Shown here: piece by piece, positions 1 to 4,182 of the stretch
Position numbering within the stretch: position 1 is the first letter of the stretch
Layout: each line of letters starts with the position of its first letter
IMG/VR virus record: IMGVR_UViG_2778261347_000020
Length of the DNA: 4,182 nucleotides
Source of the DNA: a virus
Taxonomy: Duplodnaviria > Heunggongvirae > Uroviricota > Caudoviricetes
Reading direction: 5' to 3' (one strand)
Made by a program: the position numbers and the translations under genes
Notes under the pieces: model-generated
Told to the model about the DNA's origin: nothing
The model's input: the letters and a program-made list of their open reading frames with translations, nothing else
The model's database searches: none

Positions 1-83
1 TCACCTATTGCGGATGGCAAAAACTCGATAAGGCCGTCACCGTTCTGGCGAAAAGCTGATTTTTCCGGCATCAATCCAGATAT

Positions 84-101
84 GGTGATCCCCATATCGG
101 G
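84..101. repeat. Direct repeat copy A (15-bp exact core gatccccatatcggg at 87..101; 17/18 match over 84..101) paired with 853..870
   Basis: Exact 15-mer seen at 87..101 and 856..870 on the same strand; chance of an exact 15-mer recurring in 4 kb is low. Confidence 0.8.
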
Positions 102-139
102 ATAATTACGAAATTTTCGCAGTTTAATAGGTGACCAGA

Positions 140-337
140 ATGACAGAAGCCGAAAATTATGTGCGTGTTGTTGCTGAGGTGATGCGCCGTGATGGTATCC
201 AGCTTAATGATGTGGATATGCGCAACATACGGATCCGCGTTCTTGAAATGCTGGCCTACCGTCGCCGCGTGCAGACGTACAGGGAAAAAGCAAAAATTAC
301 GTACCACTGGAAGAGGCAGGAGCGGTTACGGCGGTAA
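140..337 (+). CDS. Hypothetical small basic protein, 65 aa (MTEAENYVRVVAEVMRRDGIQLND...KRQERLRR); function unknown
   Basis: ATG at 140 preceded by SD-like AGGTGA (129..134) with 5-nt spacer; stop TAA 335..337; first ~45 codons use E. coli-preferred codons (cgt, cgc, ctg, gaa); Arg/Lys-rich C-terminus. The ORF track starts it at GTG 131; I prefer ATG 140 because of the SD spacing. No family recognised. Confidence 0.35.
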   Translation: MTEAENYVRVVAEVMRRDGIQLNDVDMRNIRIRVLEMLAYRRRVQTYREKAKITYHWKRQERLRR

Positions 338-342
338 CTGGT

Positions 343-369
343 TGAACTTAAAGCAAAGCGCAAAATTGC
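343..369. repeat. 27-bp direct repeat copy 1 (tgaacttaaagcaaagcgcaaaattgc)
   Basis: 26/27 identical to 562..588; begins 6 nt after the stop of the 140..337 ORF. Confidence 0.85.
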
Positions 370-561
370 GTTGGCTGGTGGGTGAGTTGCAGATCTGCAA
401 CTCGACCATGAAATTACGGAAACTACCCGTAGTTTGGGTAGTAAGAGTAACACCCAGATTTTGGGGCTTACTCGCGATACCCAAATAAAGGGTATCGGTG
501 GAAGAAATATCGTTTCTCATATGTGAGTACCGAGGGCGGAATTACGCCTTCGGTTACTCGC
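370..561 (+). other. Hairpin-rich 192-bp segment between the 27-bp direct repeats; candidate structured RNA or small cassette (function unknown)
   Basis: Four stem-loops by manual pairing: 384..403 (palindrome), 422..442 (7-bp stem ACTACCC/GGGTAGT, 7-nt loop), 475..497 (8-bp stem CGATACCC/GGGTATCG, 7-nt loop), 529..554 (10-bp stem with one G.U, 6-nt loop). Stems 2 and 3 share the TACCC...GGGTA arms. Strand of any transcript is not established. Confidence 0.3.
384..403. promoter_or_regulatory. 20-bp perfect palindrome gagttgcagatctgcaactc with central GATC; candidate dimeric protein-binding site or 8-bp stem / 4-nt loop hairpin
   Basis: Sequence equals its own reverse complement over 20 bp (checked base by base); centre is a Dam GATC site. 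Confidence 0.5.
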
Positions 562-588
562 TGAACTTAAAGCAAAGCGCAAATTTGC
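562..588. repeat. 27-bp direct repeat copy 2 (tgaacttaaagcaaagcgcaaatttgc), containing a perfect 10-bp palindrome gcaaatttgc (579..588)
   Basis: 26/27 identity to 343..369; single A/T difference makes the internal palindrome perfect in this copy. Confidence 0.85.
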
Positions 589-852
589 ACTCTGGCCTAA
601 CCCGTTGATATTTCCGGCAACCTCAATTTGAGGAGATCGGAAACATCACCCTTCAAATTCTGAATGGTCATAATGACCACGCAGACCATCAAGGCAACCA
701 CAACGAACATCGTTACGGTTGGAGCTTTTACCCCACTGGGGGAAAAGGTACGCACCTGAATCATCATTACCGTGATCAAGGGTATGTAAAGCCCACCAGC
801 CTGATTAACGTTTAACCGGAAAAAAATTCCGGTATGGGGGGAGTGGGTAGGT

Positions 853-870
853 GGGGATCCCCATATCGGG
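853..870. repeat. Direct repeat copy B (15-bp exact core 856..870) paired with 84..101
   Basis: Exact 15-mer gatccccatatcggg; flanks show weaker similarity (ttccgg ... tatgg ... core) suggesting a longer degenerate repeat unit of about 45 bp. Confidence 0.8.
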
Positions 871-932
871 GAACATCCACCAGCTTCATAACGGATGGCC
901 GGAAAATGATAACGGTTAAAGCGTGTTGATCT

Positions 933-989
933 TTGTTCGTGGTTGTTCGATATTGTTCGTGAAACGGTGTAGTTAATGGTGTAGTTAAT
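933..989. promoter_or_regulatory. Iteron-like direct repeats upstream of clpS: TTGTTCG x3 phased at exactly 10 bp (933..939, 943..949, 953..959) and tandem 12-mer GGTGTAGTTAAT x2 (966..977, 978..989)
   Basis: Seen directly in sequence; 10-bp phasing puts the copies on one helix face, typical of regulator binding arrays; embedded in an AT-rich stretch. Binding protein unknown. Confidence 0.35.
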
Positions 990-1052
990 TTCGCTGTTTT
1001 TGACAGAGTTGTTATTTGTAACACAGTGAAAAATAAAGACTAATCAATGAAA

Positions 1053-1061
1053 TGTTATAAA
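1053..1061 (+). promoter_or_regulatory. Candidate extended -10 element (TGtTATAAA) for clpS-clpA transcription
   Basis: TGn + TATAAA about 100 nt upstream of the clpS ATG; no good -35 (acceptable for extended -10 promoters). Purely sequence-based guess. Confidence 0.25.
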
Positions 1062-1162
1062 TGATAGTTATCTATCATGTGGAGTAGATTGGTCAGGCAA
1101 ATAAGCTCTTGTCAGCGGCAGGGCGTTCTGCCGATAACCGTAACCGAAGATGATAACTGACA

Positions 1163-1483
1163 ATGGGTAAAACGAACGACTGGCTGGACTTTGATCAACT
1201 GGCGGAAGAAAAAGTTCGCGACGCGCTAAAACCGCCATCTATGTATAAAGTGATATTAGTCAATGATGATTACACTCCGATGGAGTTTGTTATTGACGTG
1301 TTACAAAAATTCTTTTCTTATGATGTAGAACGTGCAACGCAATTGATGCTCGCTGTTCACTACCAGGGGAAGGCCATTTGCGGAGTCTTTACCGCCGAGG
1401 TTGCAGAAACCAAAGTGGCGATGGTGAACAAGTACGCGAGGGAGAATGAGCATCCATTGCTGTGTACGCTAGAAAAAGCCTGA
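1163..1483 (+). CDS. clpS: ClpS, ATP-dependent Clp protease adaptor protein (N-degron recognition), 106 aa
   Basis: Translation [106 protein letters not shown] matches E. coli ClpS as I recall it; sits 30 bp upstream of clpA as in the canonical operon. Confidence 0.97.
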
Positions 1484-1513: not shown

Positions 1514-3790
1514 ATGCTCAATCAAGAACTGGAACTCAGTTTAAATATGGCTTTCGCCAGAGCGCGCGAGCACCGTCATGAGTTTATGACCGTCGAGCAC
1601 TTGTTACTGGCGCTGCTCAGTAACCCATCTGCCCGGGAGGCGCTGGAAGCGTGTTCTGTGGATTTGGTTGCGCTCCGTCAGGAACTGGAAGCCTTTATTG
1701 AACAAACCACACCCGTTCTGCCTGCCAGTGAAGAGGAGCGCGACACACAGCCGACGCTGAGTTTTCAGCGTGTACTGCAACGTGCGGTCTTCCATGTCCA
1801 GTCCTCCGGTCGCAATGAGGTAACCGGTGCAAACGTTCTGGTCGCTATCTTTAGCGAACAGGAGTCGCAGGCGGCATATCTGTTGCGTAAACATGAAGTC
1901 AGCCGTCTCGATGTGGTGAACTTTATCTCTCATGGCACGCGTAAAGACGAGCCGACACAGTCTTCTGATCCTGGCAGCCAGCCAAACAGCGAAGAACAAG
2001 CTGGTGGGGAGGAACGTATGGAGAATTTCACGACGAACCTGAATCAGCTTGCGCGCGTGGGCGGAATCGACCCACTGATTGGTCGTGAGAAGGAGCTGGA
2101 GCGTGCTATTCAGGTTCTCTGCCGTCGCCGTAAAAACAACCCGCTGCTGGTGGGGGAATCTGGTGTCGGTAAAACCGCGATTGCGGAAGGTCTTGCCTGG
2201 CGAATTGTTCAGGGCGATGTGCCGGAAGTGATGGCTGACTGTACGATTTACTCTCTCGATATCGGTTCTCTGTTAGCGGGCACTAAATATCGCGGCGACT
2301 TTGAAAAACGTTTTAAAGCGTTGCTCAAGCAGCTGGAGCAGGACACTAACAGCATCCTGTTTATTGATGAGATCCACACCATTATCGGTGCGGGTGCAGC
2401 GTCTGGTGGCCAGGTCGATGCGGCTAACCTGATCAAACCGTTGCTCTCCAGCGGTAAAATTCGCGTAATTGGTTCGACAACCTATCAGGAGTTCAGCAAC
2501 ATTTTCGAGAAAGACCGTGCTCTGGCGCGTCGCTTCCAGAAAATTGATATTACTGAACCGTCGATCGAAGAAACTGTTCAAATCATCAATGGCCTGAAAC
2601 CGAAGTATGAAGCGCACCACGACGTGCGTTATACCGCAAAAGCGGTGCGTGCAGCGGTAGAGCTGGCGGTGAAATACATTAACGATCGTCATCTGCCGGA
2701 TAAAGCCATTGACGTTATCGACGAAGCGGGCGCTCGCGCACGCCTGATGCCGGTAAGCAAACGCAAGAAAACCGTTAATGTGGCGGATATTGAGTCCGTG
2801 GTGGCCCGTATTGCGCGCATTCCAGAGAAGAGTGTTTCTCAGAGTGACCGCGATACCCTGAAAAACCTCGGCGATCGCCTGAAAATGCTGGTCTTCGGTC
2901 AGGATAAAGCCATTGAGGCGCTGACTGAAGCCATTAAGATGGCGCGTGCAGGTTTAGGTCACGAACATAAACCGGTTGGTTCGTTCCTGTTTGCCGGCCC
3001 TACCGGGGTCGGGAAAACAGAGGTGACGGTACAGCTTTCGAAAGCGTTGGGCATTGAGCTGCTGCGCTTTGATATGTCCGAGTATATGGAACGCCATACC
3101 GTCAGCCGTCTGATTGGTGCGCCTCCGGGATACGTTGGTTTTGATCAGGGAGGTTTGCTGACTGATGCGGTCATCAAGCATCCACATGCGGTGCTGTTGC
3201 TGGACGAAATCGAGAAAGCGCATCCGGACGTGTTCAATATTCTGTTGCAGGTGATGGACAACGGTACGCTGACCGATAACAACGGACGCAAAGCGGACTT
3301 CCGTAACGTGGTGCTGGTGATGACCACCAACGCCGGGGTACGTGAAACTGAGCGTAAATCCATTGGTCTTATCCACCAGGATAACAGCACCGATGCGATG
3401 GAGGAGATCAAGAAGATCTTTACACCGGAATTCCGTAACCGTCTCGACAACATTATCTGGTTTGATCATCTGTCAACCGACGTGATCCATCAGGTGGTGG
3501 ATAAATTCATCGTCGAGTTGCAGGTTCAGCTGGATCAGAAAGGTGTTTCTCTGGAAGTGAGCCAGGAAGCGCGTAACTGGCTGGCCGAGAAAGGTTACGA
3601 CCGGGCAATGGGCGCACGTCCGATGGCGCGTGTCATCCAGGACAACCTGAAAAAACCGCTCGCCAACGAACTGCTGTTTGGTTCGCTGGTGGACGGCGGT
3701 CAGGTCACCGTCGCGCTGGATAAAGAGAAAAATGAGCTGACTTACGGATTCCAGAGTGCACAAAAGCACAAGGCGGAAGCAGCGCATTAA
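1514..3790 (+). CDS. clpA: ClpA, ATP-dependent Clp protease ATP-binding subunit (AAA+ unfoldase, two nucleotide-binding domains), 758 aa
   Basis: ATG at 1514 preceded by SD GGGGGAGG (1501..1508); the ORF track's TTG at 1499 is an upstream in-frame extension, not the likely start. Walker A motifs GESGVGKT (2153..2176, Lys220) and GPTGVGKT (2996..3019, Lys501) are at the positions expected for ClpA D1 and D2. Stop TAA 3788..3790. Confidence 0.98.
2008..2020 (+). promoter_or_regulatory. clpA: Internal SD (GGAGG 2008..2012) plus in-frame ATG (2018..2020, Met169) for the N-terminally truncated ClpA65 isoform
   Basis: Codon 169 of clpA is ATG with a GGAGG 5 nt upstream; internal initiation at Met169 producing a 65-kDa ClpA form is established for E. 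coli clpA. Confidence 0.6.
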
Positions 3791-3815
3791 TCTGATTGTT
3801 AGGTAGGTTGGTCAA

Positions 3816-3852
3816 GTCCGTAATCTCGAAAGAGGTTACGGACTTTTTGTTT
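3816..3852 (+). terminator. Rho-independent terminator of clpA
   Basis: 12-bp stem gtccgtaatctc / gaggttacggac (one G.U) closing a GAAA tetraloop (3828..3831), followed by TTTTTGTTT (3844..3852); 26 nt after the clpA stop. Confidence 0.8.
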
Positions 3853-4001
3853 ATGGGGTGGAGGAGGTTCAGACCCTTTTTTAATGATGATGGTAAGTTG
3901 TTGATAATTAGTGCTGCGGGAAGGTAAGGATAAAAAAGGGTGCTGCAGGAGAATGGGATGGTTTTGCTTTATTAACAACGGGCTAAACGTGTAGTATTTG
4001 A
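3853..4001 (+). promoter_or_regulatory. AT-rich putative CRISPR leader upstream of the first repeat
   Basis: Non-coding, AT-rich, immediately 5' of the first consensus repeat; the degenerate repeat is at the distal end, consistent with this orientation. Promoter elements not confidently identified. Confidence 0.45.
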
Positions 4002-4089
4002 GTTCACTGCCGTACAGGCAGCTTAGAAATCGACGGGGTGCGGTAAAACCTTTGCGAACGCGTTCACTGCCGTACAGACAGATAAAATG
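4002..4089 (+). CRISPR. Type I-F CRISPR mini-array: repeat 1 GTTCACTGCCGTACAGGCAGCTTAGAAA (4002..4029), 32-nt spacer (4030..4061), degenerate terminal repeat GTTCACTGCCGTACAGACAGATAAAATG (4062..4089)
   Basis: Repeat 1 matches the E. coli/Yersinia-subtype I-F 28-nt repeat as I recall it, including the CTGCC-GTACA-GGCAG hairpin bound by Cas6f; spacer length 32 is typical for I-F; second repeat matches the first 16 nt then degenerates. No cas genes in the window. Confidence 0.85.
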
Positions 4090-4091
4090 CG

Positions 4092-4120
4092 AAAAAAAAG
4101 CTCGCACTTTCGTACGAGCT
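4092..4120 (-). terminator. Rho-independent terminator for a minus-strand transcript entering from the right
   Basis: On the minus strand: stem GCTCG..CGAGC with inner 2 bp and a GAAA loop, followed by eight U (complement of A-run 4092..4099). Position fits the terminator of a tRNA gene whose 3' end would lie at about 4133. Confidence 0.6.
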
Positions 4121-4132
4121 CTTCTTTAAATA

Positions 4133-4146
4133 TGGCGGTGAGGGGG
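4133..4146 (-). other. 14-nt stub identical to the 3' end of tRNA-Ser(GGA) (minus strand CCCCCTCACCGCCA); rest of the tRNA absent; candidate att-site core / integration junction
   Basis: TGGCGGTGAGGGGG on + strand is the reverse complement of the acceptor 3' strand, discriminator and CCA of E. coli tRNA-Ser(GGA) as I recall it; the sequence after 4146 has no T-arm (no GTTCGAATC complement). 4134..4152 also folds as a hairpin GGCGGT-gaggggg-ACCGCC. Confidence 0.4.
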
Positions 4147-4182
4147 ACCGCCTGAAATAAATCTGACTTAATCCAGGGGTGT

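Follow-up and report, generated by a model that had tools for sequence, protein, structure and literature searches.

A tRNA-Ser(GGA) 3' fragment downstream of clpA very probably marks one attachment junction of an OI-43-type genomic island in Escherichia coli

Two islands of Escherichia coli O157:H7 EDL933, OI-43 (a tellurite-resistance and adherence island inserted at serW, between clpA and serW/infA) and its duplicate OI-48 (at serX, the site also occupied by SpLE1 of strain Sakai), are flanked by perfect 14-bp repeats, TGGCGGTGAGGGGG, corresponding to the last 14 bp of the respective tRNA genes (PMC3064760). Insertion leaves behind an intact tRNA gene and a 'cryptic' one, designated serW and ser'W in the case of OI-43 (PMC3064760). 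The repeats are identical to those flanking the Shigella SRL PAI, and the P4-family int genes of OI-43/48 are 99% identical at the nucleotide level to that of the SRL PAI (PMC3064760). Complete site-specific excision of OI-43 was found in 1.8e-3 of cells, internal IS-mediated deletions being far commoner than complete excision in O157 (PMC3064760); precise excision of the SRL PAI requires int (PMC7545054). More generally, the combination of a regenerated tDNA and a displaced tDNA fragment is the signature of islands integrated into tRNA genes (PMC4383910).

Here we analysed a stretch of DNA of 4,182 nt (hereafter, the window), which is E. coli chromosome. The closest genome, that of strain 6883 (NZ_CP074998.1), differs from the window by one SNP over 4182 bases, at position 2796. 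The segment 3791-4182 is 100% identical to 13 complete genomes among the matches listed; strains 6883 and 2013C-4538, used to follow the locus to the right, are both 100% identical to the window over this segment. Positions 4092-4182 are almost certainly one att junction of a genomic island that carries a P4-family integrase, is inserted into the 3' end of serW and belongs to the OI-43/OI-48/SpLE1/SRL PAI family. The junction is real, was read correctly in the preliminary description, and is already known, since PMC3064760 describes the same arrangement: the insertion site, the 14-bp repeat and the adjacency of ser'W to a P4-family int on the clpA side are all as in OI-43. RefSeq annotation places no feature (pseudo-tRNA or att site) under 4092-4182 in any genome listed. 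Elsewhere in some RefSeq records, 'RtT sRNA' is annotated beneath partial matches. The features of the window are as follows:

1163-1483, plus strand: clpS (ORF list and annotation of matching genomes)
1514-3790, plus strand: clpA, chromosomal, situated upstream of islands of the OI-43 type (ORF list and annotation of matching genomes)
3814-3845, plus strand: terminator-like hairpin of clpA (terminator scan)
4002-4089, plus strand: orphan type I-F CRISPR4 mini-array, outside the island (Rfam CRISPR-DR4, 50.1 and 20 bits)
4002-4029, 4030-4061 and 4062-4089, plus strand: consensus repeat, 32-nt spacer and degenerate repeat of this array, respectively (Rfam and spacer analysis)
4092-4127, minus strand: native intrinsic serW terminator, hairpin plus U8 (terminator scan, RNA fold, same sequence directly 3' of K-12 serW)
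4128-4132, minus strand: native 5-nt spacer between the serW 3' end and the terminator (identical in K-12)
4133-4146, minus strand: displaced serW 3' fragment, 'ser'W', which is the 14-bp att core and direct repeat TGGCGGTGAGGGGG (match to K-12 serW and far-junction repeat)
4134-4152, no strand assigned: perfect 6-7-6 inverted repeat GGCGGT-GAGGGGG-ACCGCC across the junction (read from the sequence; folds as a hairpin)
4147-4182, plus strand: first 36 bp of the island, its integrase-proximal attP arm (no K-12 homology past 4146; continuous with the int gene in 6883, 2013C-4538 and O157:H7 Z1831)

The preliminary description had proposed that 14 nt at 4133-4146 are identical to the 3' end of tRNA-Ser(GGA), and both the coordinates and the count are exact. 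The 14-mer TGGCGGTGAGGGGG occurs once in the window (the chance expectation is 0.01 matches with at most one mismatch) and is the reverse complement of CCCCCTCACCGCCA, the last 14 nt of K-12 serW, which is annotated at 925884-925971. Read in the tRNA sense, the stub comprises 3 nt of the T stem, the 3' strand of the acceptor, the discriminator and CCA. On its clpA side the terminator is the one found in K-12, and the distance between stub and terminator equals that between serW and terminator there. This terminator, likewise put forward earlier as a minus-strand hairpin followed by U8, was the sole minus-strand terminator returned by the scan (4127..4092): a 16-pair stem with a 4-nt loop and then the U run, i.e. 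a predicted intrinsic (Rho-independent) terminator in which a G+C-containing hairpin is directly followed by U residues. On the other side of the stub the similarity breaks off. BLAST homology between the window and K-12 ends at 4146, after which the window continues as ACCGCCTGAAAT... / ACCGCCTGAAATAAATC... and K-12 instead has GGATTCGAACCCCC, the T-arm of serW. The divergence and the missing T-arm had also been noted before; consistent with this, ARAGORN detected no tRNA in the window, and with the T-arm missing past 4146 the complete cloverleaf of a functional tRNA is not there.

To the right of the junction, strains 6883 and 2013C-4538 carry a 1203-bp tyrosine integrase gene on the plus strand of the window. 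Its ATG lies 160 nt after the core and 125 nt beyond the window end, and would fall at approximately window position 4307. The 400-aa product has Arm-DNA-bind_3 (PF13356), Phage_int_M (PF22022) and Phage_integrase (PF00589) domains in Pfam and shares 34% identity with CP4-57 IntA along its whole length, with the catalytic motifs R, H-x-x-R, H and Y aligned (TRSGE, HGFRS, LAH and AAYHR versus TRPAE, HGLRS, LAH and RAYNR in IntA). As judged by its domains and catalytic residues, it is a P4-family tyrosine integrase. The accession, WP_000279869.1, is shared by strain 6883 and the O157:H7 serX island, and over 2400 nt rightward of the junction the serW island of 6883 and the serX island of O157:H7 differ by one mismatch. 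An AlpA-family gene, the family of P4-type regulators and directionality factors, is located about 4.4 kb inside the island. The last 36 bp of the window had been suggested to be the edge of an island or prophage that continues to the right: they are the edge of a genomic island continuing rightward, and not of a prophage. Only these 36 bp are inside the window; judging from the matching genomes, of which 6883 is the closest (1 SNP), the DNA from which the window derives probably carries the whole island.

At the other end, the islands of both strains stop at an intact tRNA-Ser(GGA) adjoining infA (L006 7456-7543 in strain 6883 and L004 38399-38486 in 2013C-4538), to which a second copy of the 14-mer is fused, about 96 kb (6883) or about 60 kb (2013C-4538) to the right of the first. 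The fragment in the window has the same orientation as the intact tRNA and lies 96 kb (6883) or 60 kb (2013C-4538) downstream of it. In both genomes the far junction reads ...GCGCTT(A/G)TAATC-TGGCGGTGAGGGGG-GGATTCGAACC..., and comparison with the window sequence shows that the direct repeat is exactly the 14-mer. Beside the regenerated serW, the island has a hairpin plus T-run terminator of its own (L006 7550-7578 in 6883, L004 ~38493-38521 in 2013C-4538). As this island end carries a replacement terminator, the regenerated serW keeps one while the original stays with the stub: the native terminator is now separated from the regenerated gene by the island. In K-12 and LF82 the order clpA...terminator-serW-infA is contiguous with a normal 88-nt serW, which constitutes the empty site; intact serW is found in K-12 at exactly the position of the stub, and the window is thus not the ancestral arrangement. 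Taken as a whole, the locus presents structural elements of the Islander signature, namely an intact tDNA and a displaced 3' fragment with a tyrosine integrase between them and an empty site in relatives, as well as two markers of the OI-43/OI-48/SpLE1/SRL PAI family, namely the 14-bp repeat TGGCGGTGAGGGGG identical to the published string and the P4-type integrase of the family. The insertion by an integrase into the 3' end of serW that the preliminary description had proposed from the window is supported by the integrase, the second core, the intact serW, the K-12 empty site and the published OI-43 repeat. Its term 'distal junction' holds with regard to the intact tRNA, to which the junction is distal, but not with regard to the integrase gene, to which it is proximal.

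How close is the resemblance to the described islands? The nearest genome, 6883, resembles OI-43 in its ure, ter and iha cargo, and its integrase accession is that of the O157:H7 serX copy. It differs, in a comparison with EDL933 by its published description, in the island size (~96 kb), in carrying aerobactin genes (iuc/iutA) and in the presence of a satellite at yljB (see below). In full, the ~96-kb island of 6883 holds urease (ure), the ter cluster, iha, aerobactin (iuc/iutA), cah and CbtA/YeeU, and the ~60-kb island of 2013C-4538 holds a type I R-M system, DarTG, an enterotoxin, Ag43 and CbtA/YeeU; the ter/ure/iha cargo present in the nearest genome is absent from the latter, which has an identical junction. 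One att/int module with an identical junction thus accompanies very different cargo in 2013C-4538 (L003/L004) and 6883 (L005/L006/L010). The SRL PAI, likened here by the parts of its published description available in PMC3064760 and PMC7545054, has identical 14-bp direct repeats and a near-identical int; as far as these parts describe it, it differs in its cargo (multidrug resistance and fec genes) and in having serX rather than serW as the primary site. Modules of the CP4-57/P4 type (ssrA-intA, leuX-P4) are similar in the domain architecture of the integrase, the 34% identity to IntA, the AlpA-type regulator and the use of the 3' end of a small RNA gene as a target. However, in CP4-57 intA adjoins the regenerated ssrA, whereas in the element at the window edge int adjoins the displaced fragment, and the core is consequently inverted relative to int. 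Location of int at the displaced fragment rather than at the regenerated tRNA is unusual for this integrase family, but is as published for OI-43.

These observations suggest the following course of integration. Recombination of attP with attB, the last 14 bp of serW, would split the gene. The serW body with one 14-bp core would be joined to the far island end, which would supply the new terminator, and the second copy of the core – the one in the window – would stay with the native serW terminator and clpA, and the integrase-proximal island arm would come next. The two 14-bp repeats would then serve as substrates for integrase-mediated excision, probably aided by the AlpA-type directionality factor, and excision would return the K-12-like order clpA-serW-infA. 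For the source of the window, the far end is predicted to read ...CTTATAATC-TGGCGGTGAGGGGG-GGATTCGAACCCCC (intact serW), followed by infA, and the attP junction of the circle is predicted to read ...GCGCTTATAATC TGGCGGTGAGGGGG ACCGCCTGAAATAAATC...

The att sequences themselves contain possible recognition elements of the integrase. The attP reconstructed by joining the island ends, ...TAATC TGGCGGT GAGGGGG ACCGCC TGAAAT..., contains the same 6-7-6 inverted repeat that crosses the junction in the window. Read as tRNA, the central heptanucleotide (CCCCCTC) combines the final 3 nt of the T stem with the initial 4 nt of the acceptor 3' strand; this T/acceptor 'junction' is a known class of tDNA crossover sites (PMC4383910). 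We infer that strand exchange may take place within the 7-bp GAGGGGG overlap, with the hexamers GGCGGT and ACCGCC acting as core-type integrase half-sites. As the other half-site of attB, GGATTC, is unlike ACCGCC, the core-site role of the hexamers stays conjectural, and the 6-7-6 model applies to attP and to the window junction only. Further out, four copies of ATGGCATAC in the same orientation are found at -76, -64, +133 and +145 relative to the core. They form two tandem pairs, with copies 12 nt apart and one pair per attP arm: one pair lies 64-76 nt left of the far core (L006, reverse complement) and the other 133-153 nt right of 4133, outside the window. In the other loci compared this motif is seldom found, and we regard the four copies as candidate arm-type integrase binding sites.

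The alternative that survives best is that the junction is a fossil, i.e. that the island is fixed and immobile in this lineage and the stub is a scar with no current role in recombination. The islands of 6883 and 2013C-4538 do hold many IS elements and pseudogenes, and the excess of internal IS-mediated deletions over complete excision in O157 (PMC3064760) also speaks for it. Both 14-bp repeats are nevertheless perfect, the integrase ORF is intact and shares its accession with the O157:H7 serX island, an AlpA-type gene is present, and complete excision has been measured for OI-43 itself (~1.8e-3; PMC3064760). Loss of mobility is therefore unlikely in our estimation.

We also considered that the stub hairpin and the terminator together could be a small RNA gene on the minus strand. 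The minus-strand RNA 4085-4182 (98 nt) folds at -34 kcal/mol (z = -6.6 versus shuffles) into two stable hairpins, and positions 4083-4175 (minus strand) give a weak MicC-like Rfam match (RF00121; 34.3 bits, E = 0.0023). However, this score falls well short of the gathering threshold of 90 bits; the alignment is carried by the terminator hairpin alone; no promoter-like site was found in 3700-4182; and both hairpins are accounted for by the serW terminator and the att inverted repeat. We hold a small RNA gene to be highly improbable. At a permissive threshold, the MicC, Thr-leader and other Rfam matches in 3700-4182 were all driven by the terminator and far below their thresholds, with only the CRISPR repeat scoring above. 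A putative local use of the same elements – the serW terminator and att hairpin, placed next to the promoter region of the integrase, insulating the CRISPR4 array and clpA from minus-strand transcription coming out of the island, or the stub being expressed as a tRNA-3'-end-like RNA – would be conceivable, and we give it little credence.

The prevalence of the junction was estimated with two queries against 5426 complete E. coli genomes. A 71-nt junction query was covered to at least 80% in 1263 of them; this count mixes serW and serX because the serX terminator is paralogous, being identical from 4106 with 2 mismatches back to ~4090 (window 4090-4146 versus L007 2479-2535, the O157:H7 serX flank). 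With ~4090-4182 nearly identical at serX, it is the CRISPR4/clpA flank and not the stub that assigns a copy to serW, and a 128-nt query reaching into the CRISPR remnant, covered to at least 80% in 191 of the 5426 genomes, accordingly gives the serW-specific count. A further ~3,870 genomes match the 71-nt query only up to 4146, and wherever such a match is listed it falls on an annotated tRNA-Ser, as is also the case in K-12. All junction genomes listed break at exactly the same base, and so do the two that were read base by base, 6883 (serW) and O157:H7 Z1831 (serX).

The uniform breakpoint bears on the view that the 14-mer is there by chance, or that serW was truncated by a deletion or an IS rearrangement, with no integrase att site involved. 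Seen from within the window, where no tRNA is detected and the arrangement is incomplete, such an origin could be entertained, but the expected number of chance matches is 0.01 even if one mismatch is tolerated, the 14-mer is found in its native surroundings, there is no IS end at 4147, and at the far end the identical repeat is fused to an intact serW, an integrase lying between the two copies; together with the same breakpoint at both serW and serX in the genomes compared, this makes an accidental origin scarcely credible. Weaker still, and to our minds practically inconceivable, is the ancestral arrangement, in which the tRNA had been misidentified and 4133 is the start of an intact tRNA-Ser that extends past the window end: nothing beyond the first 14 nt speaks for it, the 50 nt from 4133 to the window end contain no T-arm, the serW found at this place in K-12 and LF82 is a normal one of 88 nt, and strain 6883 runs on into the integrase gene and not into a tRNA.

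An att junction of an OI-43-type island thus being the preferred reading of 4092-4182, we turn to its native neighbours. In a short-word BLAST on the I-F locus of E. coli LF82, the spacer of the CRISPR4 mini-array (4030-4061) agreed with cas3f at 31 of 32 positions, the match directly following a CC PAM; in K-12 the spacer allele instead has 26 contiguous nt in common with cas1f. By these matches the array resembles orphan arrays already published as anti-cas (Almendros et al. 2016, as far as summarised in PMC8616872). Megablast with the 32-nt spacer found it in 1589 of the 5426 complete genomes, at 1645 places; those listed are chromosomal and mostly unannotated, as expected of an array, and of the 56 extra places 3 are on plasmids.

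At the opposite end of the window, a PICI-like satellite of ~9 kb located at the yljB stop codon (L005 17084-25294, strain 6883) contributes its right end, positions 1-1060. The satellite encodes an integrase, AlpA, an Icd-like protein, a D5-type primase, a small terminase and a major capsid protein, and is flanked by 17-bp direct repeats, ATGATAGTTAT(C/T)TATCA, the window copy being at 1061-1077. Window positions 1-1100 were covered to at least 80% in only 17 of the 5426 complete genomes, and searching the literature for PICIs at cspD/yljB turned up no paper naming the attachment site. With the yljB satellite on one side and the serW island on the other, clpS-clpA is bracketed by two integrase-borne elements.

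The junction makes no open question testable, and its value is mainly one of annotation: a stretch that carries no annotation gives, to the base, the edge of an excisable virulence/resistance island. The 14-mer with its flanks types the occupancy of serW and serX, and the clpA/CRISPR4 flank separates the two sites.
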